From the NCBI GenBank assembly GCA_036493895.1, contig DASXOZ010000011.1:626-64625 (forward strand): DNA of 64,000 nucleotides, read 5' to 3'. The DNA comes from Candidatus Binatia bacterium (GTDB lineage: Bacteria > Desulfobacterota > Binatia > UBA1149 > CAITLU01). Numbering within the stretch: position 1 is the stretch's first letter; each line of letters opens with the position of its first letter. This document shows positions 4,451-40,840 of this stretch, in pieces. Under the pieces are notes generated by a model. The model did no database searches. It was not told the DNA's origin and worked only from the letters and a program-made list of their open reading frames with translations. The translations under genes were made by a program, and so were the position numbers.

Positions 4451-4464
4451 AAGAACATGTTCTA
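4451..4464. promoter_or_regulatory. KstR-like palindromic operator, site A
   Basis: AAGAACATGTTCTA (minus strand TAGAACATGTTCTT), about 80-95 bp upstream of the amidohydrolase ATG. The 16-mer CAAGAACATGTTCTAG is identical at 29555-29570. Confidence 0.7.
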
Positions 4465-10500: not shown

Positions 10501-12404
10501 CACGCGGTGGTCGAGGCGACGAACGAATCGGCAGGACACGAGGCCGAAGTCCCGGTGCAGTTCTCGGCAACGTCACAGATGCCACCCGACGCGCGACAGG
10601 TCGTTGTCGATGCGACGAAACTGTCGGCGGGGCATGCGGCGGATGTTCCGGTGCAGTTCTCGGCGACGTCGCAGATGCCGCCCGAGCTGCGGCAAGTCGT
10701 GGTGGACGCGACGAAGCTGTCGGCCGGACATGCGGCGGATGTTCCGGTGCAGTTCTCGGCGACGTCACAGACACCGCCCGCGGTGCGGCATGTCGTCGTC
10801 GAGGCTACGAAGCTGTCGGCGGGGCATGCGGCCGACGTGCCGGTGCAGTTCTCGGCGACGTCGCAGATTCCGGCCGAGGTGCGGCACGCGGTGGTCGAGG
10901 CAACGAAAGCATCGGCGGGGCATGCGGCCGACGTCCCGGTGCAGTTTTCGGCGACGTCGCAGATTCCCGCCGACGAGCGGCACGCCGTGGTCGAGGCAAC
11001 GAAAGAATCGGCGGGGCAAGCCGCCGATGTCCCGGTGCAGTTCTCGGCGACGTCGCAGATTCCAGCCGACGAGCGGCATGCCGTGGTCGATGCTACGAAA
11101 GAATCACCGGGGCACGCCGCCGAAGTTCCGGTGCAGTTCTCGGCGACGTCGCAGATGCCGCCAGAAGTGCGGCATGTCGTCGTCGAGGCTACGAACGAGT
11201 CGGCAGGGCAGGCCGCCGATGTCCCGGTGCACTTCTCGGCCACGTCGCAGATGCCGTTCGTCGTGCGACACGTCGTTGTCGAGGCTACGAATGAGTCGGC
11301 CGGGCACGCTGCCGAGGTGCCGGTGCAGTTTTCGGCCGCGTCGCAGACCCCAGCCACGGCGCGGCACGCAGTCGTCGATGCGACGAACGAGTCCGACGGG
11401 CATGCAGCGGAGGTCCCGGTACAGTTTTCGGCACTGTCGCAGATTCCGGCGGAGGCGCGGCAGGCGGTCGTCGAGGCGACGAAGGAATCGGCAGGACACG
11501 CGCCCGAGGTCCCGGTGCATTTCTCGGCATTGTCGCAGATGCCCGCCGAGTTGCGGCACGTCGTCGTCGAGGCGACGAAGCTGTCGGCCGGACAGGCTGA
11601 AGAAGTTCCCGTGCAGGTTTCGGCCGTGTCACAGATGCCGGACGCCGAGCGGCACACGGTGCCGGCCGTCACGAAAAAGCCGCCCGAGCAGCAGGCGCCC
11701 GTCGTGCAGTGCGTGACGGCGATCGCCGGGCTCGGCTCGACCTGGACACATTTGCACTTGGAGTTGGTCGCCGGCCACGCCTGCGTGTAGTCCGCGCAGT
11801 TGTTGCCGGCGTTGTTGTCGTAGCTGGAGCAGATGTTCAGATCGAGGAAACCGTTGTTGTCGGAGTCGTAGCAGCTGACCGTGATGTCACCCGTGTTGAT
11901 GACGAAATTGCCGGTGACCGAGGCCGAGCCCGGGTAGTCGGGGCAGAAGTCGCCGTCGATGTTCTGGCCCTGGTCATAGGGCGCAGGGGCGCCGGGAGTG
12001 CGGATGAGATCGATGTAGCACTGCGTGCTGGTCTCGGCGCTGACGCCGTCCTTCGCGATGTAGACGGCGCCGTCGTAGCGCTGCGGGGATGTCGGGGCGA
12101 TGGTGATGTCCGCGTGGAACGTGACGGTGTCGGTGGGAAGCCCGTTGCAGCCGCCGCCGGTGACGACCGCGTTCGACATTCCCGCGACGCCGAAGTCCGC
12201 GGCCGTGCAGCTCGAGATGGATTTACCGTTCAGCGCGGCTCGCGGCGTGATGCACAGGTCGGGGCCGTTCGGATTGACGACCTGGGCGCCGGCGCCGGCG
12301 CCGCTGCCGAGCAATGCGATCGATGCGGCGAGCAGCGATAGCGCGACGCGCGAACGCCTGCTCGACGAAGGAGATGACCGCCGCGAAGAAGAAGAAACCG
12401 TCAT
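4572..12404 (-). CDS. Giant secreted disintegrin-like repeat protein 1 (2610 aa): signal peptide, Cys-rich head, 49+3 Cys4 repeats, six DUF11/Ig-like modules
   Basis: ATG 12404 has AAAGGGGG SD; MTVSSSSRR...VALSLLAASIALLGSGAGAGA looks like a signal peptide. GACCSGGFFVTAGTVCR leads into tandem CRxxxGxCDxxExCTGxxxxCPxDxF repeats. C-terminal LRKTHTGDTTPGGEVTYTLQWSN...VTDPIP is a DUF11-type module. Confidence 0.9.
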   Translation of the reverse strand: MTVSSSSRRSSPSSSRRSRVALSLLAASIALLGSGAGAGAQVVNPNGPDLCITPRAALNGKSISSCTAADFGVAGMSNAVVTGGGCNGLPTDTVTFHADITIAPTSPQRYDGAVYIAKDGVSAETSTQCYIDLIRTPGAPAPYDQGQNIDGDFCPDYPGSASVTGNFVINTGDITVSCYDSDNNGFLDLNICSSYDNNAGNNCADYTQAWPATNSKCKCVQVEPSPAIAVTHCTTGACCSGGFFVTAGTVCRSASGICDTAETCTGTSSACPADSFVASTTTCRNSAGICDNAEKCTGTSGACPADSFVASTTACRASAGICDSAENCTGTSAACPSDSFVASTTACRAVAGVCDAAENCTGTSAACPADSFVASTTTCRTTNGICDVAEKCTGTSAACPADSFVASTTTCRTSGGICDVAENCTGTSAACPGDSFVASTTACRSSAGICDVAENCTGTSAACPADSFVASTTACRSSAGICDVAENCTGTSAACPADAFVASTTACRTSAGICDVAENCTGTSAACPADSFVASTTTCRTAGGVCDVAENCTGTSAACPADSFVASTTTCRSSGGICDVAENCTGTSAACPADSFVASTTTCRASGGICDVAENCTGTSASCPADSFVASTTACRASAGVCDVAENCTGTSVACPTDAFVTSTTTCRATTGVCDVAESCTGTSAACPADALAGSTTVCRTAVSICDVAENCTGLLASCPLDLFALATVTCRASAGVCDVAENCTGLSSTCPADSFVASTTACRASTGVCDPSENCTGTATACPADAFSASTTVCRSTGGVCDVAENCTGTTGACPADAFVASTTTCRASGGVCDVAENCTGTSAACPADSFVASTTTCRASGGICDVAENCTGVSASCPADSFVASTTACRASAGVCDVAENCTGTSAACPTDAFVSSTTTCRATTGVCDVAESCTGTSATCPAETLASSTTDCRDAVSICDVAENCTGLLASCPLDLFALPTVTCRASAGVCDVAENCTGLSSTCPADSFVASTTACRASTGVCDVAENCTGTAAACPADSFVASTATCRAATGVCDVAENCTGTSGACPADAFSASTTLCRSIAGVCDVAENCTGTSSTCPADAFVASTTLCRASTGVCDPSENCTGLLATCPLDVFALPTVTCRASAGVCDVAENCTGISGACPADAFVASTTLCRASTGVCDPSENCTGTAAACPADAIAASTTVCRASGGVCDVAENCTGTSGACPADAFVASTTTCRASGGVCDVAENCTGTSATCPADVLVSSATVCRDAVSICDVAENCTGLLASCPLDLFALPTVTCRASGGVCDVAENCTGLSSTCPADSFVASTTACRASTGVCDPSENCSGTAAACPADTFTASTTVCRPSGGVCDVAENCTGTSGACPADAFDASTTLCRASTGVCDPSENCSGTAAACPADTFTASTTVCRASGGICDVAENCTGTSGACPADAFVSSTSTCRASTGVCDPSESCTGTAASCPADTFTASTTTCRASGGVCDVAENCTGTSGACPADAFVSSTTTCRTSTGVCDTPESCTGTAAACPADAFVSSTTTCRASGGICDVAESCTGTSGACPGDAFVSSTTTCRPSAGVCDTAENCSGTSAACPGDAFLSAAALCRASTGICDPSENCSGIAAACPADSFTASTSVCRPSAGICDPAENCTGTSGACPADSFVASTTTCRASGGICDVAENCTGTSAACPANTFASSTTACRPSAGVCDVAESCTGASASCPADAFVASTTVCRGSGGVCDVAENCTGASATCTADSFAASATTCRAAVSQCDAAENCTGASTSCPADAFRSAGFACGSSSSSICDAPDTCDGSGSCLVNHASASIVCRLAAGECDVAENCDGNGSCPSDGFKPDGSACGSQASSSCDQPDTCLSGVCQTNQVCEDCAASLRKTHTGDTTPGGEVTYTLQWSNSCRNPVSDLNVTDPIPGGMTVESASSPVATTTISGNTVTFHMDSWGGGDVGQGTITVRIADSTEPGTTIVNTASLTTAGIPSAEATDKLNVRSQADLCPVALRKVHSGNDNPGGTIQYTLQWSNACADDLADVTISDPLPAGLTLVSASSGDASASVSGNTATFTADPFKAGTVGQGFITATIDPTMSSGASVLNVATLSDPAGHYATADNVFHVRDDGTGGATLSCFLRAQIYATPGSFVKYELRYKNGSESNSVNLTMPDDVTIISAYPTPTAQQGQTLFWDSLAATAGKVKVNTQVSPLAPDQTVLPSSATMNDGAGNNAVCEQTSVVTASNKLFASIRSQTYSRAGLTLRYTARYREAVGHNQLTISLPDEVTVLRSQPAPSGGSERTLTFSDLMDPSGSVKIDAQIAADVATGTVLVGSMTMSDETGTIVASETQTVIGLGTTGGGSGTPALDVTALRSVTPGTTTDVAISYSGLVSPSTLTMTLPPEMTPVLAVPSASLLPDGAQWRLTDTSGSVKLRVAVSSSAVAGSTLQIAASALDGSGTTYNGQASTIVRDGSTASGPTVSLTLPRTVTSGLTSDVSADYANLTGTGTLVLTLPDGMSEQSTTPNGATVSGNDVVFSNLASASGSVKVRTLVSSSLASGTSLPVSVTVSDGSGASASTASSTSVR
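6951..11654 (-). repeat. Coding tandem array, 49 x 96 bp (32 aa, 4 Cys per unit)
   Basis: Counted in the translation. The first-unit Cys codon at 11654 and the first variant-unit Cys at 6950 are exactly 49 x 96 bp apart. Three variant units follow to about 6690. Confidence 0.95.
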
Positions 12405-12852
12405 CCGACCCCCTTTCGTCGCTGACGCAGCGCTTTTGACACGCTCATCGACGACGGCAGTCGCTCGGCGTACAGCGTCGAGCGGCTCAAAAAGCGATGG
12501 ATTCGTGAAGAGGAGGCGGGGGGCAGTGAGCGCGCGAACCCTTCCCCGGGATTCTCCGCAATGCGCTCCGTAGTTTCCCCGACCCGATCCCCTCGCCAGG
12601 AACCACTTCGCGACCGTTACCCACCCAAGAAAACGGCCGCTGCGGAATGCATATTCGCCGCGGAAACGTACTGAAGCAAACGGGTTTCGCGTGGCCTGTG
12701 CCGCGTGCCGGGGCAAACCGGGCGGCCGGATTTCCGGATCTGTGGCGGCAGTCACGACCCAGAGGACGGCCTTCCGCAGCCCGGGGTTATCCGGGCGAAA
12801 AAAAGGTGAATCTGGTCGTGATGGGACGCCCGGAAGCAGGAAGACGGGATTG

Positions 12853-12894
12853 GCGGCGGCTGCCGGCCCCGGATCCGGGCCCGGCAGCCGCCGC
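12853..12894 (-). terminator. GC-rich stem-loop just downstream of giant protein 2
   Basis: gcggcggctgccgg...ccggcagccgccgc forms a perfect 14-bp stem plus an inner stem, about 10 nt after the stop at 12904. No clear U-tract. Confidence 0.5.
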
Positions 12895-12903
12895 TGGGAT
12901 TGC

Positions 12904-15900
12904 TCAGCGAACCGACGTGGTACCGGCGGCGCTGGCGCTGGCACCGGTCGTGTCACCGATCTGGCCACTGACAGCCAGCGAGCTGCCGCTTGCGGCGCTT
13001 GCCGGGATGAGCACGCGCACCTTGGCCGTGCCCGATGCGTCGGTCAGCCCGTTCCAGGTCACGTTGCTGCTGCTGATCGCCGCACCGCTCGGCACCGTGC
13101 TCTGGGCCGTGACGCCGGACGGCAGTGTGATGACGAGGTGCCCGGTGCCCTGCAGGCCGGCCCAGTCGGCGTAGAAGTCCGACGTGAGTCCCGCGGTCAC
13201 CGTGCGCGGCAGCGTCAGCGTCATCGACAGGCCCGGCGACGATGTCGTGTCGTCACGCACGATCGTCGAGGCCTGCGCCGTCTGGCTCGCTCCGCTGCCG
13301 TCAGTCTCGGATCCGTTGATGACCAGCGCCTTGCCGGCCGCGGCGGACACACCGACCATCACGCGCAGCTTGATCGAGCCGCTGCTCGTCGCGATGCCGG
13401 ACCAGGTGGCCTGGCCGTCGGTCAGCGTGCCTGACGGCACCGCCAGCGTCGGTACGAGCTCCGGCGGCAGCGTCACCGTGATCGTCGCAGGCGGCTGCAG
13501 GGCGTCGTAGCGGATCGTGATGTCGGTCGTCGTCCCCGGCGTCACCGACTTGACGGTCGTCAGCGTGAGCGCCGAGGTGCCGCCCGCGGTCGAACTCGCG
13601 TCCCCGACCACCGTCTGCGTTTCGGCGCCGACGATGTCCTTGGTTTCGTCGGTCATCGTCAGGCTGCCCACCAGCACGGTGCCGTTGGCGACGTTGCCGA
13701 CCTGCGTGTCGATCTTCACGACGCCCGCCGGAACCGGCAGGTCTTTGAAGATCAGCGTGTTGTCGGTTCCGCCGCTGGGCGCCGGCAGCGCGCGCAGCAC
13801 GGTGACGTCACTCGGCAGTGAGACCGTCATCTGGTTGTGGCCGACTGCATCACGGTAGCGCGCGGTGTAGCGCACGCCGAGGCCCGGCCGGCTGTGGGTC
13901 TGCGCCTTGATCGACGCGAACAGCACCTGCGAACGCGAGACCACGCCCTCGTGCTCGCAGACGGCAACGTCACCGGCGTGGTCGTCGACGAACGCGCTCG
14001 TCGACAGCACGGTCTGGTCGGTCACCAGCAGTCCGACCTGGGTCTCGACCGACACCTTGCCGGCCGTCAGCGCCAGGTTGTCCCATTCCAGAGTCTGCCC
14101 GTCCTGCTTCGACGGCGGCGGGAAAGCGCTCTCGATGTTGACCTCGTCAGGCAGCGTCAGCGACAGCGCGTTGTTCTCGGTGCCGTTGCGGTAGCGCACC
14201 TGGTACTTCACGAAGCTGCCGGGCGACGCGAACACCTGGCCCGACACGGCGCACGACAGGCTCGTCGTTGCCGTGCTTCCGCCTCGGACGCGGAACAGGC
14301 TGTCGGCCGTTTCGTGGTGACCGGCCGGGTCGGAGAGCGTCGCGACGTTGAGGATCGACTCGCCGACGGGTGCCTGCGGATCGATCGTCGCGGTGATCAG
14401 GCCCTGGCCGACGGTGCCGGCGCTCCAGCTCGCCATGTGGAAGATGGCCGAGTTGCCGTCGATCGTGACGTCGGCATCCGACGACGTGGCCGACAGGAGC
14501 AGCACTCCGTCCGGCATCGGATCGGAGATCGTCACGTCGGTGACGTCGGCCTGGCACGCGTTCGACCACTGCAGCGTGTACTGGATCTGGCCGCCCGGGT
14601 TGTCGTTGCCCGAGTGCACCTTGCGCAGCGAGACCGGGCACAGCTCGTCGATGCTGCGTACCGTCAGCTTGTCGCTGCCGGTCGCGCTGTGCGAAGCGTC
14701 GTCGACGTAATGGGCGACGTTCTCGATCGTCGAGCCCGGCGACGCATCGTCGGCAACCCTGGCCGTGATCGTGCCCTGGGCAACGTCGCCGCCGGCAAAC
14801 GTGCCCATGTTGAACGTCACGGTGTTGCCGGCAGTCGACGCCGACGCGTCCGGCGAGCTTGCCGACACCAGCTCGAGTCCGTTCGGCAGCGTATCGCTGA
14901 TGACGGCGTTCGAGATCGGATCGCGGCAGGAGTTCGACCACTGCAGTGTGAACTCGACCGTGCCGCCGGGGGTCGTGTCGCCGTTGTGGATCTTGCGCAG
15001 CGTAACCGAGCAGTCCTCGCAGATGATGTTGTCCTGGCACGAGCCGGCAAGGCAGGTGTCGGGCTTGTCGCACGTCGTCTCGGCCGGGGAGCCGCACGGC
15101 GAGCCGTCGGACTTGACGGAGTCGCCGGGGCAGTGGCCGAAGCCGTCGCAGTTCTCGGCAACGTCGCAATCGCTGGCGGCCGGGCGGCAGACCTTGGAGA
15201 TCGGCGCCAGGTTGCTCTGGCAGGTGCCGGAGCCGTCGCAGGTGTCGGCGCCGTCGCAGACGCTTTGCGCCGAGCTGCCGCAGCTCGAGCCGGACGGCTT
15301 CTTGCCGTCGGCGGGGCAGCTGGCCGCTGCGCCGTTGCAGTTCTCGGCTGCATCGCACTGGTCGGCTGCCGGACGGCAGACGGTGGAAGCACCGAGGAAA
15401 CCGTTGGCCGGGCACGTCGCGCTGACGCCGGTGCAGCTTTCGGCGACGTCGCAGACGCCGGAGGCCGGGCGGCACACGGTGGACGCAGCGACGAAGCTGT
15501 TGGCCGGGCACGCAGCCGAAGCTCCCGTGCACTGCTCGGCGACGTCGCAGACCCCACCTGCTGCGCGACAGGTGACCGAGGCCGATGCGAAGTTGTCCGG
15601 CGGACAGAATGCGAACGAGCCGGTGCAGTTCTCGGGAACGTCGCACACACCGGCCGAAGCACGGCAGACCCTGGACGCGGACGCGAGTGCGTCGCCGGGG
15701 CACGCAGCCGAGTTGCCGGTGCACTGCTCGGCAACGTCGCAGACGCCTGCCGCGGCACGACACGTGGTCGTCGCCGAGACGAAGGTGTCGCCGGGGCAGG
15801 TGGCAGAGCCGCCGGTGCAGTTTTCCGCGACGTCGCAGACGCCTGCGCTCGGCCGGCACGTGGTGGCCGCACCGGCAAACGTATTGGCAGGGCAAAGCGG

Positions 15901-18900
15901 CGATGCACCGGTGCAGTTCTCGGCGATGTCGCAGACACCGGCCGCTGCGCGGCAAGTCACTGCAGCCGAAAGGAAGGCATCGGCCGGACAGGCGCCGCCT
16001 GCGCCGGTGCAGTTCTCCGGCGTGTCGCAAATGCCGGCCGGCGCACGACAGACGGTGGTCGGCGGCAGCAGCGTATCGGCCGGGCAGCTGCCGCTTGCGC
16101 CGCTGCAGTGCTCGACCGGATCACACACTCCGGTGGAGACACGACAGATCGTCGCTGCGGACAGGAACGTATCGACCGGACACGTCGCGCCGCTGCCGGT
16201 GCAGTTCTCGGACGCATCGCAGACGCCGGTCGACGCGCGACAGGTCGTCGCTGCCGACTGGAACGAATTGCCGGGGCACGAGGCCGATGCGCCGCTGCAG
16301 TTCTCCGCGACGTCGCAGACGCCGGCTGACGCGCGACAGAGCGTCGCAGCGCTGAGGAATCCGTCGCCGGGGCAGCTCGCGCTGATTCCGGTGCAGTTCT
16401 CGGGCGTGTCGCAGACACCGGCCTTTGCGCGGCACACGGTGGCCGCGCTCAGGAACGAGTTGGCCGGACACACAATCGAGGTGCCGGTGCAGTTCTCATC
16501 GGTGTCGCAGACGCCGGCGGCTGCGCGGCACGTGAAGTTCGAATTCGCGAACGAGTCGGACGGGCAGGCGGCCTCGGTGCCCGTGCAGTGCTCGGCCAGG
16601 TCGCAGACGCCGGCCGTACCGCGGCACGAGGTCGTCGTGCCGAGGAACAGGTCGGACGGACACGCCGCCGACGTGCCGGTGCAGTTCTCCGCGATGTCGC
16701 AGACGCCGGCGACGGCGCGGCAGGTCGTCGTCGACGCGAGGAAACTGTCGGCCGGGCATGCAACCGATGCGCCCGTGCACTTCTCGGCCGGATCGCAAAC
16801 GCCTGCCGAAGGACGGCACGTCGTCGTCGAGGAGACGAAGACATCGGTCGGGCACGCGGCAGAGGTGCCCGTGCAATCTTCGGCAACGTCGCAGATGCCG
16901 CCCGACGCGCGGCAGGTCGTGGTCGAGGAAACGAAAGCATCGGCCGGACACGCGCCCGAGGTTCCGGTGCAGTTCTCGGCGACATCGCAGACGCCGCCGG
17001 TCGAGCGGCAGACCGTCGTGGACGCGGTGAACGTATCGGCAGGGCATGCCGCTGCAGTTCCGCTGCAGTTTTCGGACGGGTCGCAGACGCCGGTCGATGC
17101 GCGGCAGAGCGTGGTCGATGCGACGAACGCATCGGCAGGACACGCACCGGAGGTTCCGGTGCAGTTCTCGGCAACGTCACAGACGCCGCCGGACGGGCGG
17201 CAGACGGTCGTCGATGCGGTGAATGTGTCGGCAGGGCATGCCGCCGCGGTTCCGCTGCAATTTTCGGATGGATCGCAGACACCGGTCGATGCGCGGCAGA
17301 GCGTAGTCGACGCAACGAACGCATCGGCCGGGCACGCGCCCGAGGTTCCGGTGCAGTTCTCGGCGACGTCGCAGACGCCGCCCGACGAACGGCAGACGGT
17401 CGTCGATGCAAGGAAGGTGTCGCCTGGACAGGCCCCGGAAGTTCCCGTGCAGTTCTCGGCCGGATCGCAGACACCGCTCGAAGCGCGACAGGTCGTCGTC
17501 GAGGCGACGAATGCATCGGCCGGACATGCAGCGTCGGTTCCGGTGCAGCTCTCGGAAGGATCGCAGACCCCGGTGGACGCACGGCAGACCGTCGTCGATG
17601 CGACGAACGTATCGCCAGGACAGGCGCCGCTGGTGCCGGTGCAGTTTTCGGCGACGTCGCAGATACCGCCGGTCGAGCGGCAGACCGTCGTCGACGCGGT
17701 GAACGTATCGGCGGGGCACGCCGCTGCGGTTCCAGTGCAATTTTCAGACGGATCGCAGACGCCGGTCGACGCGCGGCACAGCGCGGTCGACGCCACGAAC
17801 GCATCGGCCGGGCATGCGCCGGAGGTTCCGGTGCAGTTCTCGGCGACGTCGCAAACGCCGCCCGACGCACGGCAGACCGTCGTCGATGCGGTGAACGTAT
17901 CGGCGGGGCAAGCCGCAGCCGTTCCGCTGCAATTCTCGGACGGGTCGCAGACGCCGGTCGATGCGCGGCACAGCGTGGTCGACGCGACGAACGCATCGGC
18001 CGGGCACGCGCCGGAGGTTCCGGTGCAGTTCTCGGCGACGTCGCAGACGCCGCCCGACGAACGGCAGACGGTCGTCGACGCGGTGAACGTATCGGCAGGG
18101 CACGCCGCCGCGGTTCCGCTGCAATTTTCGGACGGGTCGCAGACGCCGGTCGATGCGCGGCAGAGCGTAGTCGATGCGGCGAACGCATCGGCAGGACACG
18201 CGCCGGAGGTTCCGGTGCAGTTCTCGGCGACGTCGCAGACGCCGCCCGACGAACGGCAGACGGTTGTCGATGAGGTGAATGTATCGGCCGGGCACGCGGC
18301 GGAGGTTCCGGTGCAGTTTTCGGCAACGTCGCAGATACCGCCCGAGGAACGGCAAGTGGTCGTCGAAGCGACGAAAGCGTCGGCCGGGCACGCGGCGGAG
18401 GTTCCGGTGCAGTTCTCGGCAACGTCGCAGATGCCGCCCGAGGAACGGCAAGTCGTCGTCGAAGCGACGAAAGCGTCGGCCGGGCACGCGGCGGAGGTGC
18501 CGGTGCAGTTCTCGGCAGCGTCGCAGACGCCGCCCGAGGCGCGGCACGTCGTGGTCGAAGCGACGAAAGCGTCGGCCGGGCACGCGGCGGAGGTGCCGGT
18601 GCAGTTTTCGGCAACGTCGCAAAGGCCGCCCGAGGCGCGGCAAGTCGTCGTCGACGCGACAAAGGCGTCGGCCGGGCACGCGGCAGAGGTGCCGGTGCAG
18701 TTCTCGGCGACGTCGCAGATGCCGCCCGATGCACGGCAAGTCGTCGTCGATGCGACGAAGGCGTCGGCCGGGCACGCCGCCGACGCGCCGGTGCAGTTCT
18801 CGGCGACGTCGCAGATGCCGCCCGAAGCGCGGCAGGTCGTCGTCGAAGCGACGAAGGCGTTGGCTGGGCATGCGGCGGAAGCGCCGGTGCAGTTTTCGGC

Positions 18901-19809
18901 AACGTCGCAGATGCCGCCCGATGCGCGGCACGCCGTGGTCGATGCGACGAACGAGTCGGCCGGGCACGCGCTCGAAGTGCCGGTGCAGTTTTCCGCGGTG
19001 TCGCAGACGCCGGCCGATGGACGGCACACGGTGGTGCTCGGCAGGAAAGAGCCGGCCACGCAGCAGGCACCAACCACGCACGTAGGTACCACTATCTGGG
19101 GAATCGTATCTACATGGGCGCAATTGCACTTCGAGGCGGTTTGAGGGTTGGCCTGATCCACGCTGTTGCAAATGGGGGCAGTGTTGTTGGCCCACGATGT
19201 ACAGACGGCGAGATCGAGGATGCCGTCACTCCCCGCGACCTGGGTAGCGTTGACGATGAAATCCGAGCACGCCAACGTCACGCCGGTGAAGTGGGAAGAG
19301 TAGGTGCCGCTGCTATTGCCGTCCGGGCATGAGTCGCCGTCCTGCACCCACGGTTGACCGGGAATGGGGTACGTGTCGGTCAGCAGGGTTGCCGAGCAAG
19401 TACCGGTAAGCGCATCCACACCGTCTGCGCCCAGCCACAAGCCGATGTCGTAGCGATCGGGTGCATTGGACGTGGCGATCAAATCTCCATCGATCGTGAT
19501 CGTGTCCGAAGGGCTGGTGCAGATGATGTCGGCCGAGTTGACCGTGTCGATGTTAATGTGGGTGACCGCGAAGTCGTTGGCCGTGCAGTTCAGGCTCGTG
19601 CCGGCCTGGTCCTCCAGGCATATATGGGGGTAGACGGCCCAAGCGTCTCTGCTCCAGGCGACTGTGAGTATTGTTACTGCGACTGCAGCCGACGCGACGC
19701 GTGTGAAGAACGCGCGCCCCCCGTACGTACGCCCCCGCGTATTCATGCCGGACACAGTCGTGAGCCTGGCAGCCACCCACGGCTTCCGAGAACAGGTTGC
19801 CTCAGTCAT
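12904..19809 (-). CDS. Giant secreted disintegrin-like repeat protein 2 (2301 aa), paralog of 4572..12404
   Basis: ATG 19809 has AAAGGGGGA SD (alternative ATG 19746); hydrophobic VASAAVAVTILTVAWSRDAWA segment. GACCVAGSFLPSTTVCR is followed by 39+3 Cys4 repeats and the same six-module C-terminus (LRKVHSGNDNPGGxIQYTLQWSNAC shared). Confidence 0.9.
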   Translation of the reverse strand: MTEATCSRKPWVAARLTTVSGMNTRGRTYGGRAFFTRVASAAVAVTILTVAWSRDAWAVYPHICLEDQAGTSLNCTANDFAVTHINIDTVNSADIICTSPSDTITIDGDLIATSNAPDRYDIGLWLGADGVDALTGTCSATLLTDTYPIPGQPWVQDGDSCPDGNSSGTYSSHFTGVTLACSDFIVNATQVAGSDGILDLAVCTSWANNTAPICNSVDQANPQTASKCNCAHVDTIPQIVVPTCVVGACCVAGSFLPSTTVCRPSAGVCDTAENCTGTSSACPADSFVASTTACRASGGICDVAENCTGASAACPANAFVASTTTCRASGGICDVAENCTGASAACPADAFVASTTTCRASGGICDVAENCTGTSAACPADAFVASTTTCRASGGLCDVAENCTGTSAACPADAFVASTTTCRASGGVCDAAENCTGTSAACPADAFVASTTTCRSSGGICDVAENCTGTSAACPADAFVASTTTCRSSGGICDVAENCTGTSAACPADTFTSSTTVCRSSGGVCDVAENCTGTSGACPADAFAASTTLCRASTGVCDPSENCSGTAAACPADTFTASTTVCRSSGGVCDVAENCTGTSGACPADAFVASTTLCRASTGVCDPSENCSGTAAACPADTFTASTTVCRASGGVCDVAENCTGTSGACPADAFVASTALCRASTGVCDPSENCTGTAAACPADTFTASTTVCRSTGGICDVAENCTGTSGACPGDTFVASTTVCRASTGVCDPSESCTGTDAACPADAFVASTTTCRASSGVCDPAENCTGTSGACPGDTFLASTTVCRSSGGVCDVAENCTGTSGACPADAFVASTTLCRASTGVCDPSENCSGTAAACPADTFTASTTVCRPSGGVCDVAENCTGTSGACPADAFVASTTLCRASTGVCDPSENCSGTAAACPADTFTASTTVCRSTGGVCDVAENCTGTSGACPADAFVSSTTTCRASGGICDVAEDCTGTSAACPTDVFVSSTTTCRPSAGVCDPAEKCTGASVACPADSFLASTTTCRAVAGVCDIAENCTGTSAACPSDLFLGTTTSCRGTAGVCDLAEHCTGTEAACPSDSFANSNFTCRAAAGVCDTDENCTGTSIVCPANSFLSAATVCRAKAGVCDTPENCTGISASCPGDGFLSAATLCRASAGVCDVAENCSGASASCPGNSFQSAATTCRASTGVCDASENCTGSGATCPVDTFLSAATICRVSTGVCDPVEHCSGASGSCPADTLLPPTTVCRAPAGICDTPENCTGAGGACPADAFLSAAVTCRAAAGVCDIAENCTGASPLCPANTFAGAATTCRPSAGVCDVAENCTGGSATCPGDTFVSATTTCRAAAGVCDVAEQCTGNSAACPGDALASASRVCRASAGVCDVPENCTGSFAFCPPDNFASASVTCRAAGGVCDVAEQCTGASAACPANSFVAASTVCRPASGVCDVAESCTGVSATCPANGFLGASTVCRPAADQCDAAENCNGAAASCPADGKKPSGSSCGSSAQSVCDGADTCDGSGTCQSNLAPISKVCRPAASDCDVAENCDGFGHCPGDSVKSDGSPCGSPAETTCDKPDTCLAGSCQDNIICEDCSVTLRKIHNGDTTPGGTVEFTLQWSNSCRDPISNAVISDTLPNGLELVSASSPDASASTAGNTVTFNMGTFAGGDVAQGTITARVADDASPGSTIENVAHYVDDASHSATGSDKLTVRSIDELCPVSLRKVHSGNDNPGGQIQYTLQWSNACQADVTDVTISDPMPDGVLLLSATSSDADVTIDGNSAIFHMASWSAGTVGQGLITATIDPQAPVGESILNVATLSDPAGHHETADSLFRVRGGSTATTSLSCAVSGQVFASPGSFVKYQVRYRNGTENNALSLTLPDEVNIESAFPPPSKQDGQTLEWDNLALTAGKVSVETQVGLLVTDQTVLSTSAFVDDHAGDVAVCEHEGVVSRSQVLFASIKAQTHSRPGLGVRYTARYRDAVGHNQMTVSLPSDVTVLRALPAPSGGTDNTLIFKDLPVPAGVVKIDTQVGNVANGTVLVGSLTMTDETKDIVGAETQTVVGDASSTAGGTSALTLTTVKSVTPGTTTDITIRYDALQPPATITVTLPPELVPTLAVPSGTLTDGQATWSGIATSSGSIKLRVMVGVSAAAGKALVINGSETDGSGASQTAQASTIVRDDTTSSPGLSMTLTLPRTVTAGLTSDFYADWAGLQGTGHLVITLPSGVTAQSTVPSGAAISSSNVTWNGLTDASGTAKVRVLIPASAASGSSLAVSGQIGDTTGASASAAGTTSVR
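15283..19026 (-). repeat. Coding tandem array, 39 x 96 bp (32 aa, 4 Cys per unit)
   Basis: The first-unit Cys at 19026 and the first variant-unit Cys at 15282 are exactly 39 x 96 bp apart. Same consensus as array 1. Confidence 0.95.
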
Positions 19810-20218
19810 CAGATCCCCCTTTCGACGATCCACGCACGAAGCCCGTCCGCTTCGTTGCCGGTGTTTCGCCCGCTTCCGCTTAGCGGTCCGGATTCCCGCC
19901 GAATCCGGAAATGCTTTGCCCACGGGTGAAGAGATCCTCTTCACAGCAGGGCTCGCCGGCTCTGGTGAACCGTCGCCCTGCGATTCGTCGGACCGTCGCT
20001 GCGAGCGCGCTCCGCGAAGAGACTCACCCGCCGGGCCCGTAGGCAATCCTTGTCAACCCCGGATTCCGCCGGCTGCGTACTTCCCGCGGCCGTTCCCCGG
20101 AATCCCCCTGGAGGGGGCGGATTATGCGTCAAAATGCCTTGAGAAGTCTAGGGAAAAATATGGCAGTCCGGCTGACATTGGGTGCGGCCGCAGACCCGCA
20201 AACAGCGTGCGAACGTCG

Positions 20219-23247: not shown

Positions 23248-23366
23248 GCGGGCGGCGGTGGGCATTCGCGCTCGCTACGTCCTCGGGCGCATGAATCGCA
23301 GTCTCATGAACGGACGCTGGTGGGCGCGCTGCGGAGCCGCGAGCGCGAACGCCCACCGCCGCCCGC
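23248..23366. repeat. Long inverted repeat (28-bp arms, one mismatch, 63-nt loop) between convergent genes
   Basis: gcgggcggcggtgggcattcgcgctcgc (23248-23275) vs gcgagcgcgaacgcccaccgccgcccgc (23339-23366). Confidence 0.8.
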
Positions 23367-23572
23367 TCGCTGCGTTCTCCTTGTCGCGGCGCCCGCTCGC
23401 GACGTCTTCGGGTTCGCGCTGCTCGCTCGCTTCGGTTTCCTGGTTGCGGCGCTCGGTTGCGACGTCCTCGGTTCGCGCCGCTCGCTTGCGACGTTTTCGG
23501 CGTTGCGCCGGCGGCTCGCGACGTTTTTGGTTTTGCGGCGGCTTGGTCGCGAGGGTTTCGGGTTCGAGCCGT
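23363..23572. repeat. Degenerate ~30-bp minisatellite, 6-7 copies
   Basis: Units start near 23363, 23393, 23423, 23453, 23482, 23512 and 23542; consensus approx. YCGCTCGCGACGTYTTCGGGTTYGCGSCGC. Confidence 0.65.
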
Positions 23573-23599: not shown

Positions 23600-24529
23600 C
23601 TACTTGATTGCCAGGGGGTTGATCGGGGAGCCGATGCCGCCGGTGACTCGCAGGGGCGGCGCGGTCAGCAGGAAATCCCAGCACCCGTCGGCTTCGCAGT
23701 CGCGGGCGAGCTCGTCGAGTTCGAACATCTCGCCGAACGGCATTCCCATGTCGCGGATGCACAGCAGGTGAAGCGGATACAGGAGCGAAGGATCCTCGCA
23801 CGGCATCACTTCGACGGCGGTCGTGTCGGAGCAGACCGCGGCAAGATCGCGCTCACGGATCCATTCGGCGGCGTCGAGGCCGAGACCGGGGCCCTGCCAG
23901 AGGTAAGTTTCGCGGTCCCCGTCCTTCGTGAACACCGAAAGGTGACCGGTGCGAAGCACGAGGATGTCGCCGGGCAGAAGCCGGCAGCCCTGGGCGGCAA
24001 GCGCGTCGTCGAGCTCCGAGGGGCGGATCGCAGTGCCGGGCGCGATGCGTTCGACGCCGCGATGGCGGGCCAGGTCGACGAGCACTCCGCGTGAGACGAT
24101 GCCTGGCGACGCAAGCTTGTCGATGCCGTTGCGCGTGGCGCCGCCGGCGCCGAGGTGCTCGCCGGCCGCATAGCCGTTGTAGAGCTTCCCGTCGTAGTGC
24201 ACGTGCGCGAGGCTGTCCCACTGCGTGGACGATTGCAGCGGCAGCGACAGCACGTCGTCCGAGTAGCAGAAGCCGCGCGGGTCTTCGCCGATCAGCGTGC
24301 CGATCGCGGTCATGTAGTGCTGGGGATTGAAGCGGCCGATTACCGATCCGGTCTGCGGCCCTTCGGGCCCGAGCGAGAGGCCGAGACTGAAGACGTCCCC
24401 GCGCCGCACGCACGCCACCGCGCGCCGGACGACCTCGGGCGTGATCAGGTTGAGCGTGCCGCGCTCGTCGTCGGCACCCCAACGCCCCCAGTTCGAAACC
24501 TTCCCCGCAATATCCCGGACTCTTTTCAT
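23600..24529 (-). CDS. Cyclase family protein (kynurenine formamidase-like metal hydrolase)
   Basis: SNWGRWGADDERGTLN, STQWDSLAHV, GIVSRGVLVDL, GDILVLRTG, GEMFELDELA, GIGSPINPLAIK. Confidence 0.9.
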   Translation of the reverse strand: MKRVRDIAGKVSNWGRWGADDERGTLNLITPEVVRRAVACVRRGDVFSLGLSLGPEGPQTGSVIGRFNPQHYMTAIGTLIGEDPRGFCYSDDVLSLPLQSSTQWDSLAHVHYDGKLYNGYAAGEHLGAGGATRNGIDKLASPGIVSRGVLVDLARHRGVERIAPGTAIRPSELDDALAAQGCRLLPGDILVLRTGHLSVFTKDGDRETYLWQGPGLGLDAAEWIRERDLAAVCSDTTAVEVMPCEDPSLLYPLHLLCIRDMGMPFGEMFELDELARDCEADGCWDFLLTAPPLRVTGGIGSPINPLAIK

Positions 24530-24540
24530 AACTCTTGTGT

Positions 24541-24581
24541 AATGGGGTCAGGCACCACAGGAATAGTGCCTGTCCTCATTC
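24541..24581. repeat. REP-like inverted doublet abutting the LLM stop codon
   Basis: aatggggtcaggcac-cacaggaata-gtgcctgtcctcattc; near-identical to the last unit plus inverted arm of the 25975-26163 array. Confidence 0.8.
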
Positions 24582-25820
24582 CTAGTAGTGGAACTCCGGA
24601 AGCACCTTGGTGACGAACAGCTCGAGCTGCTCGGCCTGCACGTCCATCGGCACCGTGCCCTGGTAGAAGAAGTTCCACGAGATCCACTCGAGGTCTCCAT
24701 CGCCGTGGCACTTGACCAGTGCGGCAAGCTGCTTCTTGACGTCGTCGATGGTGCCGCAGAGCTGGTAGCCGCGGTCGATCATCCTCTGCGTCGCCGCGTG
24801 CTCGTCCTTGAACTTCAGCGGCATGATCGCCTTGTCGTCGTCTGGAGTGCGGAACACTTCGCCGAAACCGAACAGGTTGAAATAGTGGTGGTACTCGTAC
24901 CCGGTCGTGCGCGCGGCCAGCTCGAAGGCCTCTTCGCGCGTCTTGCCGATCGTGATCGCGCGCACGGCACCGAGCCTCTGCCCGAGCTTCAGGTCGTGGC
25001 CCGCCTTGGCCGCTTCGCTCTGGTAGAGCTTCGCCCACTTCTGGAAGCCCTGCGGCGAAGCTTCGAAGATCCACGGGAGGATCCCGCGACGGGCGCAGTC
25101 GATCAGTGATTTTTCCGACAGAGTAAACGGCGCCCAGATCGGAGGATGAGGGTGCTGGTACGGCCTCGGCACGACGCCGATCTTGCGAATCACGCCGTTG
25201 TCGTCGATCTCGCCGGGCGCTCCGTACTTGCGCGTCCACTCCGGAGCCGCCCAGCCGTCGATTCCGGAGAAAGGGAAGGGAACCTTGTAGTGTTGCCCGT
25301 CGTACGAGAAGCAGTCCTCGGTCCAGGCCTTCTGCACGATCTCGAGCTTCTCGTCGTACACGTCGCGGTTGGCGGCGTCGCCCTTGTCGCCCATGCCGGT
25401 CGCCGACTCGGCACCTTGGCCTAGCACTTTCATCCACTTCTTCTGGTAGCCACGCGCGAACGCGACCGCGACGCGGCCCTTGGTGAGCTGGTCGAGGATC
25501 GCGATGTCTTCGGCAACGCGGATCGGATCGGCCGTCGGCAGCACCACCGACATCGGCGCGAATGTAATTTGCTTGGTGCGCGCCGCGAAGTCCGCGTACA
25601 GCAGCACCGGGTTGACCGAGACCTCGCCGCCTTCGGTGTGGAAGTGGTGCTCGGTGGTCGAGAACGCGTCGACGCCGAGCTCGTCGGCGTGGATGACCAG
25701 GCGTCGCAGCTCCTCGAGCATCATCTGGTAGCGCTCGGTGTTGCGCCCGATCGGCCGCAGCGAGCTGCGCTCCTCGTTGGTGGACGGAATGGTGGGCATC
25801 GCGAACAGGTCGAGCTTCAA
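24582..25820 (-). CDS. LLM-class flavin-dependent oxidoreductase (luciferase-like monooxygenase)
   Basis: TTG start with GAGGAG SD; FSTTEHHFH, DPIRVAEDIAILDQLTKGRV, PRPYQHPHPPIW. Confidence 0.9.
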   Translation of the reverse strand: MKLDLFAMPTIPSTNEERSSLRPIGRNTERYQMMLEELRRLVIHADELGVDAFSTTEHHFHTEGGEVSVNPVLLYADFAARTKQITFAPMSVVLPTADPIRVAEDIAILDQLTKGRVAVAFARGYQKKWMKVLGQGAESATGMGDKGDAANRDVYDEKLEIVQKAWTEDCFSYDGQHYKVPFPFSGIDGWAAPEWTRKYGAPGEIDDNGVIRKIGVVPRPYQHPHPPIWAPFTLSEKSLIDCARRGILPWIFEASPQGFQKWAKLYQSEAAKAGHDLKLGQRLGAVRAITIGKTREEAFELAARTTGYEYHHYFNLFGFGEVFRTPDDDKAIMPLKFKDEHAATQRMIDRGYQLCGTIDDVKKQLAALVKCHGDGDLEWISWNFFYQGTVPMDVQAEQLELFVTKVLPEFHY

Positions 25821-25884
25821 GATTGGTCTCCTCGCGGGGCGATTGCCGCGGCCGCACCGTAAGACAGGCTGCGCCGGGGGCGGC

Positions 25885-25898
25885 TGGAACGTGTTCTA
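25885..25898. promoter_or_regulatory. KstR-like palindromic operator, site B
   Basis: TGGAACGTGTTCTA, a full match to TnnAACnnGTTnnA, 65-78 bp upstream of the LLM start at 25820. Confidence 0.7.
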
Positions 25899-25948
25899 CC
25901 TGCGCTCCCCGGCCGTTTCCAGCCCGCGCGCGTCCCGAGCGACGCGGT

Positions 25949-26163
25949 TGGGGACAGGCACTATGCCATTGCTTGAATGGGGTCAGGCACCAGAGGAATG
26001 GGGTCAGGCACCACAGGAATGGGGTCAGGCACCAGAGGAATGGGGTCAGGCACCACAGGAATGGGGTCAGGCACCAGAGGAATGGGGTCAGGCACCAGAA
26101 GAATGGGGTCAGGCACCACAGGAATGGGGTCAGGCACCACAGGAATGGTGCCTGACCCCATTC
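25949..26163. repeat. REP-like element array: one variant arm, eight tandem 21-bp units, one inverted arm
   Basis: TGGGGACAGGCACTA at 25949. GAATGGGGTCAGGCACCA(G/C)A(G/A) x8 starting at 25975, 25996, 26017, 26038, 26059, 26080, 26101 and 26122. Inverted GGTGCCTGACCCCATTC at 26147-26163 overlaps the VOC stop codon. Confidence 0.92.
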
Positions 26164-26632
26164 AGAGCGGCTTGCCGAAGGGGATGTAGGGATCGCCGGG
26201 GATTTCTACCAGCTCGACCAGGGTGCCGTCGGGGTCGGCGACGAACACGAGGCGAGAGCCGTACGCGGGATAGTCGGTCCGCGTCGAGTCGAGCACCGTG
26301 ACCGACGCCTCGCGCATCTTCGCGAGCGTCGCGTCCAGGTCGTCCACGCGCAGCATGATCGCAGCCAGCCCCGTGCGGTTCATCTGTCGCGGAGGATCCG
26401 GCGGCGGCGACTTCGGCGCGCGGAACTCGAACAGCGCCAGGCGCACGCCGTCGCGCTCGAGGAAGACGGTGGTCTGATCGACGCCGCGAAGACCGAGAAG
26501 CCGGTCGGCATCCTCGCCGCGGACATCCGTCTGCGTCATCGCGCGAAAGCCGAGCAGGTCACGATAGAACGGAACCGACCGGGACAAGTCGGAGACGCAG
26601 ATGCCGATGTGACCGAAACGAACGACTGCCAT
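26162..26632 (-). CDS. VOC (glyoxalase/bleomycin resistance/dioxygenase) family protein
   Basis: FGHIGICVSDLSRSVPFYRDLLGF, LALFEF, FVADPDGTLVELVE. Confidence 0.9.
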   Translation of the reverse strand: MAVVRFGHIGICVSDLSRSVPFYRDLLGFRAMTQTDVRGEDADRLLGLRGVDQTTVFLERDGVRLALFEFRAPKSPPPDPPRQMNRTGLAAIMLRVDDLDATLAKMREASVTVLDSTRTDYPAYGSRLVFVADPDGTLVELVEIPGDPYIPFGKPL

Positions 26633-29555: not shown

Positions 29556-29569
29556 AAGAACATGTTCTA
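29556..29569. promoter_or_regulatory. KstR-like palindromic operator, site C (divergent promoter)
   Basis: AAGAACATGTTCTA, identical to site A, centred between the NTF2 ATG (29487) and the O-methyltransferase ATG (29647). Confidence 0.7.
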
Positions 29570-40748: not shown

Positions 40749-40763
40749 TGGGGTCAGGCACCA
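40749..40763. repeat. Single REP-like arm
   Basis: TGGGGTCAGGCACCA, identical to the core of the 24541 and 25975 elements, in the 5' leader of the Rieske gene. Confidence 0.7.
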
Positions 40764-40826: not shown

Positions 40827-40840
40827 TAGAACGTGTTCCA
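40827..40840. promoter_or_regulatory. KstR-like palindromic operator, site D (divergent promoter)
   Basis: TAGAACGTGTTCCA, a full match to TnnAACnnGTTnnA, between the Rieske gene and the SDR-crotonase-MFS operon. Confidence 0.72.

Follow-up and report, generated by a model that had tools for sequence, protein, structure and literature searches.

What kind of element sets a short palindrome flush against two stop codons of a bacterial gene cluster, and how does one of its arms come to be repeated eight times in a row? The question is raised by positions 24541–26163 of a 64-kb stretch of DNA from Candidatus Binatia bacterium (GenBank assembly GCA_036493895.1, contig DASXOZ010000011.1, positions 626 to 64,625 of the forward strand), hereafter the window. 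A first-pass annotation of its letters had proposed an uncharacterised family of repetitive extragenic palindromic (REP) elements, spread by an HUH transposase. According to our analysis, the window repeats are probably (about 0.8) non-autonomous repeats of the terminal inverted repeat (TIR) type, equivalent to REPs and to their hairpin doublets (REPINs), that belong to a clade of TIRYT transposases. The proposed linkage of repeat and transposase held; the class indicated, however, is that of TIRYTs and TIRtrons, not the canonical GTAG-tagged REP, and the family is not wholly uncharacterised, as it matches this already described class, with its GGGGWSAS motif (Di Nocera, 2013; PMC3733652).

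Copies of the repeat in the window

Throughout, "core" denotes the 13-nt arm GGGGTCAGGCACC and "doublet" two inverted arms with a short loop. The window holds the following copies:

24541–24581, imperfect inverted doublet (hetero-dimer) between the stop of a luciferase-like monooxygenase (LLM) gene and the start of a cyclase gene
24544–24556, direct arm of this doublet, GGGGTCAGGCACC
24557–24564, its loop, ACAGGAAT
24565–24577, its inverted variant arm, AGTGCCTGTCCTC, followed by an ATTC flank at 24578–24581
25950–25962, plus strand, variant single arm GGGGACAGGCACT, two mismatches to the core, 12 nt before the array
25975–26142, plus strand, eight direct 21-bp units, GAAT + GGGGTCAGGCACC + A(C/G)A(G/A)
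26143–26163, minus strand, complete inverted unit GAATGGTGCCTGACCCCATTC, 100% complementary to unit 8
40750–40762, plus strand, exact arm GGGGTCAGGCACC standing alone between divergent genes, ~65 nt away from a KstR-like operator (40827–40840)

On the plus strand the first doublet reads AAT-GGGGTCAGGCACC-ACAGGAAT-AGTGCCTGTCCTC-ATTC. It directly adjoins CTA at 24582–24584, the TAG stop of the minus-strand LLM gene, and lies 11 nt from the start of the minus-strand cyclase gene (24529). Its inverted arm departs from the perfect complement at 3 of 13 positions and is similar to the variant arm GGGGACAGGCACT, with which it forms one subtype. At the second site, Tandem Repeats Finder delimited an array at 25975–26148 with period 21, 8.3 copies, 95% matches and zero indels. 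The array cores are invariant (0/104 mismatches), and the linkers differ at 4 of 56 positions, at linker positions 2 and 4 only, reading in order AGAG, ACAG, AGAG, ACAG, AGAG, AGAA, ACAG and ACAG. Unit 8 and the inverted unit form a perfect 18-bp hairpin (26122–26139 with 26146–26163), the final two bases of which are shared with the TGA stop of a VOC gene (26162–26164, minus strand).

The first-pass annotation had thus correctly described a doublet flush with the LLM stop, a second one at the VOC stop (26122–26163), an eight-fold repetition of left arm and linker at exactly 21 bp, a variant arm (placed at 25949) and a lone arm (placed at 40749). Its alternating CAGAG/CACAG tails apply to units 1–5 and break down in units 6–8. 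The doublets do not bracket the LLM gene, as had been stated; rather, each comes after a stop codon. Altogether the window contains 11 exact copies of the 13-mer and 13 with up to two mismatches, against 2.3 expected, a number reached in 0 of 100 shuffles. Rfam at gathering thresholds gave no match anywhere in the window.

The same core in other genomes

Across a set of 185,579 species genomes, the lineage-specific 23-mer (core and linker) was absent, and a 20-mer returned just two chance coding matches in JGI metagenomes. Adjacent pairs of the exact core occurred in ~72 of the species genomes, and the hairpin GGGGTCAGGCACC-N4-14-GGTGCCTGACCCC was found at 78 loci in 37 species genomes, with ~0.003 expected by chance. 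Hosts of the hairpin include Binatia, Steroidobacteraceae, Hyphomicrobium, Solirubrobacterales, Nitrospirota, Planctomycetota, Omnitrophica and Lachnospiraceae, as well as a cultured Clostridium and a cultured Bacillaceae, and Calidifontibacillus erzurumensis P2 and Clostridium sp. Marseille-P3244 are among the cultivable carriers; several genomes hold 5–10 copies within the small retrieved part alone. Data for the window locus in public archives consist only of k=31 unitigs from two soil metagenome runs, and unitigs of equal depth (~10x) from the same soil metagenome show the unit between different flanks. Both lines of evidence place further copies outside the two doublet sites.

The 13-nt arms are identical between genomes, and the loops and flanks are genome-specific. 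As the first-pass annotation had led us to expect, the copies sit near stop codons: for 50 of the 79 hairpins, the end of an open reading frame (ORF) of 100 codons or more is no further than 40 nt away, compared with 18% of random positions, and ORFs end on both sides, as between convergent genes, at 22/79 (0.9% in controls). Most hairpin-to-stop distances are ≤10 nt. Among loci not chosen for inverted pairs, head-out (GGGG...CCCC) arrangements exceeded tail-out ones by 7 to 1. No GTAG/GTGG foot was present on any window arm or at the 78 hairpin loci; the flanks are A/T-rich, and no protein family recurred next to these loci, apart from a rare transposase. The hairpin was absent from IMG/VR viral contigs. 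A literature search with sequence strings yielded primers and chance matches only, the lone Pseudomonas hit being an unrelated hrp-box table.

Two Actinomycetes metagenome-assembled genomes (MAGs; L029 and L044) carry a doublet at an orthologous convergent-gene junction. Both 13-nt arms are intact, the 4-nt loop reads gtgc in one and gcct in the other, and the right flanks differ too, a pattern that points to the arms alone being constrained or converted.

A Y1 HUH transposase gene bracketed by the core

A motif scan of the fetched loci identified a Y1 HUH transposase ORF ~60 bp after a perfect doublet in the MAG 'bacterium GFS_5288' (L004/L101), with the exact core upstream of the gene and the 3′ side lost at the contig end. 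A homologue detected by tblastn in Omnitrophica (L063) has doublets of the one-mismatch core GGGGTCAGTCACC on both sides, and both proteins match Pfam Y1_Tnp (PF01797; E 1.7e-13 for the L004/L101 protein). With an alignment of the two as query, we retrieved 80 loci of at least 462 confirmed relatives, from Patescibacteria, Planctomycetota, Nitrospirota, Acidobacteriota, Gammaproteobacteria, Bacteroidota and others. The homologues comprise 220–231 aa, and H60-x-H62 (NHFH) and Y122 (RYVERNP) are invariant in all 80 sequences.

Of the 74 loci that are complete, ~60 have the gene enclosed by an inverted repeat of 17 nt (0–1 mismatches): an A/T-flanked 13-nt core lies 20–45 nt upstream of the ATG, and its reverse complement lies at the stop. 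At ~29 loci the offset is −9, and the gene's own stop is the TGA within ..CCTGAC.. of the repeat. Across the retrieved loci, core variants follow the protein clusters:

GGGGTCAGCCACC, core variant of Patescibacteria
GGTGTCAGGAACC, core variant of Planctomycetes and Nitrospira
GGGGACGCGGACC, GGGGACGGGAGTC, GGGGATAAGTACA, GGGGACAGGGACA, GGGGTCAGGTACC, GGGGTCAGGAGCC and GGTGTCAGACACC, core variants of other protein clusters
GGGGTCAGGCACC, the exact window core, at L101

This covariation, seen across ~60 loci, is the strongest evidence that the core is the cognate site of the enzyme. The anticipated HUH (RAYT-type) gene flanked by the same core is present in other genomes.

The closest solved structure is that of E. 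coli TnpA(REP) (4ER8, E 1.7e-6), and the NCBIfam REP_Tyr_transpos model scored 78.7 bits with the L102 protein, compared with 17.8 bits for the IS200 model. The proteins combine a Y1 HUH fold, with the H-u-H motif and a catalytic Tyr, with greater proximity to TnpA(REP) than to IS200 TnpA. The 80-bit NCBIfam equivalog cutoff was narrowly missed (63.7 bits for the truncated L004 protein, 78.7 bits for L102); the clade is a sister group and not the curated E. coli-type equivalog.

In the mechanism that we propose, the 13-nt core GGGGTCAGGCACC would be the terminal inverted repeat recognised by this widely distributed clade of RAYT-like Y1 HUH transposases. A full TIRtron would consist of a core between A/T flanks, 20–45 nt, the transposase gene and the reverse-complement core, and a dispersed doublet would keep the same head-out arrangement with the gene swapped for a loop of 4–14 nt. 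If it works like its homologues TnpA(REP) and the IS200/IS605 enzymes, the transposase would spread the repeat by cutting and rejoining it, folded and single-stranded, during replication. The model expects a host transposase of ~225 aa with NHFH...YVERNP, bracketed by GAATGGGGTCAGGCACCATTC.

Two observations concern the transposase loci themselves. At the ~29 loci with the in-core stop (L103–L176; for example, L153, 2013–2034), the ORF enters the downstream repeat and ends at the core TGA (..GGTTCCTGACACC), with a conserved C-terminal G-R-P-K-K coded immediately before it; because the stop lies in the core, its CTGAC/GTCAG part is under dual constraint. On the 0.99-Mb Nomurabacteria chromosome CP060229.1 there are two TIRYT genes (L107, L137), one with the core GGTGTCAGGTACC and the other with AGGGTCAGGTACG. 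Pseudomonas similarly has several RAYT/REPIN pairs, but the genome here is a tiny one of the candidate phyla radiation (CPR).

Mobile repeats or host-evolved stem-loops

The hairpins could instead be regulatory stem-loops that evolved in their hosts and were inherited vertically, their similarity reflecting selection for one good stem. They are found at the 3′ ends of genes, in many cases convergent ones, and often have A-run and T-run flanks that give them the look of bidirectional intrinsic terminators, and the L029/L044 site is conserved, its arms intact and its loop changed. We nevertheless regard this explanation as very unlikely. Convergence cannot explain an identical 13-mer shared by more than ten phyla. 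This core also stands on both sides of a transposase gene, with which it co-varies. Neither window hairpin has a U-tract, and a scan of the locus for terminators gave no hit at the elements. The element is also missing from six orthologous VOC-LLM-cyclase loci of relatives, whose LLM proteins are 81–90% identical to that of the window's soil bacterium and come from MAGs labelled Candidatus Binatia or Myxococcales. Judging from these sequences, the element is not ancestral at the window locus. A host function is compatible with mobility; it is not a substitute for it.

Some of the relatives carry other GGGGWCAG-type palindromes in the same intergenic sites (GGGACAGGTAC in L081 and L082, GGGGTCAGACCCC in L082 and GGGGACAGTCCCC in L083). 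From these different palindromes it follows that each lineage has its own variant and that the intergenic sites were repeatedly occupied. GGGGTCAGACCCC (L082) and GGGGACAGTCCCC (L083) lie downstream of the LLM gene between A/T flanks and resemble centrally collapsed or deleted doublets of the GGGGWCAG family; a short palindrome of this kind also occurs inside a cluster of full arms (L243, 3860–3875). The window VOC protein ends in ..GKPL*, 2–3 residues shorter than its relatives (..PYSGA*, ..PYTGA*, ..PYQA*), and the insertion may have reshaped this C-terminus.

Probable assignment to the TIRtron class

RAYT-like genes with terminal inverted repeats instead of GTAG REPs were described by Di Nocera, De Gregorio and Rocco (2013; BMC Genomics 14:522; PMC3733652), where the structures are named TIRtrons, the proteins TIRYTs, and the common TIR motif is given as GGGGWSAS. 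The paper reports 'moderately abundant families of TIRs', whose members stand alone, as dimers or in clusters, and 26 examples from cultured genomes (Stenotrophomonas, Koribacter, Rhodopirellula and others). The motif fits both GGGGTCAG (main arm) and GGGGACAG (variant arm). The window likewise holds a single arm, a variant arm on its own, a dimer and a cluster, all lacking a GTAG tag, and counterparts of the repeat in other genomes overlap a RAYT-like Y1 gene or are a fixed, short way from it. The window repeat differs in the exact core found in ~72 genomes of many phyla, the in-core stop and the direct arrays of 6–8 arms, none of which is described in the text of PMC3733652 examined, and in that no transposase gene was found in the window itself.

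Twenty of the 26 TIRYTs fall into subclass 2.1, which equals Bertels Group 1 and has a median length of 238 aa, an NH[YF]H/NHVH HuH motif, FQ or W[EQ], a Y[IV]xLNP-like motif and a C-terminal helix-turn-helix (HTH)-like extension (Quentin, 2018; PMC6006769). The clade found here shows NHFH, (F/Y)QGRY, YVERNP and a conserved ~100-aa C-terminal extension, and is compatible with subclass 2.1 by length and motifs. Group 1 is the most widespread RAYT group (21 classes) and the most similar to insertion sequences (ISs); its flanking 16-mers are moderately abundant (12 occurrences), plasmids carry some of its copies, and it is likely to be transferred horizontally more often (Bertels, 2017; PMC5581495).

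The REPIN-RAYT systems of Pseudomonas and Enterobacteria (Group 2/3; Bertels & Rainey, 2011, PMC3116915; Bertels, 2017, PMC5581495) likewise consist of dispersed extragenic hairpin doublets, enriched after genes, and of an HUH Y1 gene that has these repeats on its flanks, each transposase variant having a repeat family of its own. The window doublets have the REPIN arrangement, two inverted repeats in one hairpin, in the same layout as around the transposase gene. Unlike these systems, the window family has no 5′ GTAG/GTGG foot, its protein is longer (~225 aa) and of Group 1, and its core is common to many phyla, whereas Group 2/3 families are lineage-specific and vertically inherited. With IS200/IS605 elements and their palindrome-only derivatives it shares a Y1 HUH enzyme, hairpin ends and the lack of target-site duplications; here, however, the Y motif is YVERNP, not Y...Q, and the ends are true inverted repeats, not distinct left and right subterminal hairpins. 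In E. coli BIMEs, too, many REP units cluster locally at the ends of genes, spaced by regular linkers, and their hetero-dimers of two REP subtypes (Y/Z) resemble the T..C and A..T arm subtypes of the window. BIME units alternate in orientation, whereas the window array has eight direct units and only the last inverted. We know of no binding of host factors such as IHF or gyrase to the window repeat family.

Other candidates were rejected. Against a miniature inverted-repeat transposable element of the DDE type speak the lack of target-site duplications and the linked gene, which is a Y1 enzyme. For a single-arm mini-hairpin (flank + GG / CC + flank), neither position 13 nor the inner pairs are conserved across core variants. 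Complementarity to 5S rRNA CCUGACCCCAU, to GGUCAGG of signal recognition particle (SRP) RNA and resemblance to a tRNA-like 3′ end (..GGCACCA) are probably coincidental, the flanking bases involved being genome-specific.

The assignment would tie an anonymous soil-MAG repeat to a named, barely studied transposase class, and would make the 21-nt unit a concrete substrate with which a Group 1 RAYT/TIRYT could be tested biochemically for the first time. It would also provide a counter-example to the view of REPIN-type populations as strictly lineage-specific. In the TIRYT/RAYT literature examined, we did not find one exact 13-nt core common to ~72 species genomes of very different phyla, a core that co-varies with the transposase subclade and often supplies the TGA stop of the gene, or single arms repeatedly growing into direct arrays.

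Origin of the array

Direct adjacency is as common as inverted adjacency, with GGGGTCAGGCACC-N4-14-GGGGTCAGGCACC at 70 loci. A Coprococcus MAG holds arrays of 8, 7 and 6 direct arms with periods of 24–26 bp, three-arm clusters are frequent across genomes, and direct duplicates are present beside transposase genes too. The 8+1 array of the window is the top end of a recurrent pattern, and an eight-fold direct array is not unique. Over all arrays, the cores diverge at 5/377 positions and the linkers at 20/208 (Fisher p 4e-6), a comparison biased by the discovery of the arrays via exact cores. In L224, adjacent units are the most alike, as local duplication predicts.

In the window, the direct arm (GAATGGGG) and the inverted arm (GAATGGTG) each open with the hexamer GAATGG, and the spacing of the two hexamers is exactly 21 bp. 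Replication slippage between them would have duplicated arm and linker and so started the array, which may then have grown by slippage or unequal exchange in a 21- and perhaps 42-bp register, aided by stalling at the hairpin. On this pattern of repeats, the array probably arose by slippage on GAATGG microhomology; later 42-bp steps are plausible and would fit the G/C alternation of the first five linkers.

Alternatively, the transposase itself may have built the array by repeatedly inserting single arms beside an existing arm, the core carrying its own target. IS200/IS605 enzymes do insert beside a specific short target, direct multi-arm clusters are common in many genomes and beside transposase genes, and cores stay identical while linkers drift. 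Yet linkers are alike within an array and different between arrays, neighbouring units in L224 follow the pattern of local duplication, GAATGG microhomology yields exactly the 21-bp unit, and to our knowledge no target or cleavage site has been reported for TIRYTs. We therefore consider such iterative insertion unlikely. Equally tentative, and in our view improbable, is the wider proposal that TIRtrons are a still-active, horizontally moving counterpart of REPIN-RAYT systems whose enzyme may itself make head-to-tail single-arm arrays. In this reading the 13-nt core is kept identical across more than ten phyla and holds the transposase's own stop codon. If it were true, the arrays would be footprints of recent activity and would reveal an HUH-driven mode of tandem amplification not described for REPs.

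A further question is whether the eight-fold array is an assembly artefact, a short tandem repeat that the assembler wrongly expanded or collapsed, the true locus being a plain doublet or having another copy number. The repeat (168 bp plus the inverted unit) exceeds a typical short read, and the public unitigs break within the array, leaving the order and number of units beyond their reach. Array unitig depth (400–1270, against ~10 elsewhere) is inflated by multi-mapping and was not used for copy number. The unitigs do support, in independent runs, both array-flank junctions and the junction of unit 8 with the inverted arm. Unit 6 has a unique AGAA linker at a distance of 126 bp from the left flank and 63 bp from the right one, so that 150-bp reads could anchor the whole array, and comparable arrays of the same core occur in unrelated assemblies. 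An artefact thus appears quite unlikely.

Could the array instead be coding, or act as RNA? ORFs of 66–110 aa run across it (25977–26189, plus strand; 25961–26161, minus strand; 25823–26155, plus strand), and one of them (25977–26189) would encode a heptad-repeat peptide, MGSGTRG x8. As a sponge RNA, the array would offer A(C/G)AGGAAUGG motifs resembling CsrA-binding GGA sites, with GGA in the loop of the plus-strand hairpin. These ORFs stay open, however, only because the period of 21 is divisible by three. Equivalent arrays elsewhere have periods of 17–27 bp, mostly not multiples of three, and linkers without GGA; the ORF overlaps the VOC gene antisense, no Rfam match was found, and nothing indicates plus-strand transcription. 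We regard both functions as extremely improbable. Gene callers are likely to list such ORFs as hypothetical proteins, and recognition of the repeat flags them as spurious, along with likely assembly break points.

Having considered these alternatives, we retain the reading of the window repeats as TIR-type repeats of a TIRYT clade, against which several points weigh. The exact window core was found at only one retrieved transposase locus (L101). As the first-pass annotation had noted, the window holds no RAYT: tblastn found no transposase homologue within it, so a cognate gene in the organism is assumed. The copy number of eight comes from the assembly alone, and slippage is not distinguishable here from transposase-mediated iterative insertion. 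We know of no biochemical activity reported for any TIRYT. Pfam finds no C-terminal HTH domain in the proteins, whose placement in subclass 2.1 is by motifs and length, and no REP-like sequences were found near subclass 2.1 genes by Quentin (2018; PMC6006769).

Possible effects on host transcripts

RNA folding of the array hairpin gave −37.7 kcal/mol on the plus strand (z −7.9) and −46.6 kcal/mol with flanks on the minus strand (z −8.7). In the sense (minus-strand) RNA, the hairpin of the inverted unit and unit 8 begins 1 nt past the VOC stop, and the other seven arms are largely unpaired. The doublet after the LLM gene folds more weakly in the minus-strand transcript (−23.3 kcal/mol, z −2.9). 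According to these predictions, a stable stem-loop 0–1 nt from the VOC and LLM stops could act as a 3′-exonuclease barrier or attenuator, or could interfere with terminating ribosomes. Ribosome interference by E. coli REPs ≤15 nt from a stop codon has reportedly been described by Liang, Rudd and Deutscher in Mol Cell in 2015. For annotation, the assignment marks stop-flush hairpins that may affect VOC and LLM expression.

Neighbouring genes and other repeats in the window

The element lies among the following features:

23600–24529, minus strand, cyclase gene, PF04199
24582–25820, minus strand, LLM gene, PF00296, stop flush with the doublet; context, outside the element
25885–25898, operator-like palindrome TGGAACGTGTTCTA, with the array on one side and the start of the LLM gene on the other, conserved upstream of the LLM gene in L080–L084
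26162–26632, minus strand, VOC/glyoxalase gene, PF00903, stop overlapping the inverted unit

The operator-like site suggests that the LLM gene is under its own regulated promoter, in which case the upstream transcription unit would end at the array. The 14-bp palindrome TAGAACRYGTTCYA occurs four times in the window (4451–4464, 25885–25898, 29556–29569 and 40827–40840), compared with 0.05 expected, and we take it to resemble the KstR-type TetR operator TnnAACnnGTTnnA. The four copies suggest a small regulon covering the catabolic gene cluster.

Straight after the cyclase stop, at 23357–23571, lies an unrelated tandem repeat of ~6–7 units of 30 bp (60-bp higher order), each unit holding a GTCGCG...CGCGAC mini-palindrome. 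Repeat or hairpin DNA therefore stands behind all three genes of the cluster. Two giant minus-strand ORFs (4572–12968 and 12904–20046; 2798 and 2380 aa) consist of ~48 and ~36 tandem copies, respectively, of a 96-bp (32-aa) Cys-rich unit, CRASxGxCDxxExCTGxxxxCPxD, which is repeatedly matched by Pfam Disintegrin PF00200 (8 stretches in 300 aa).

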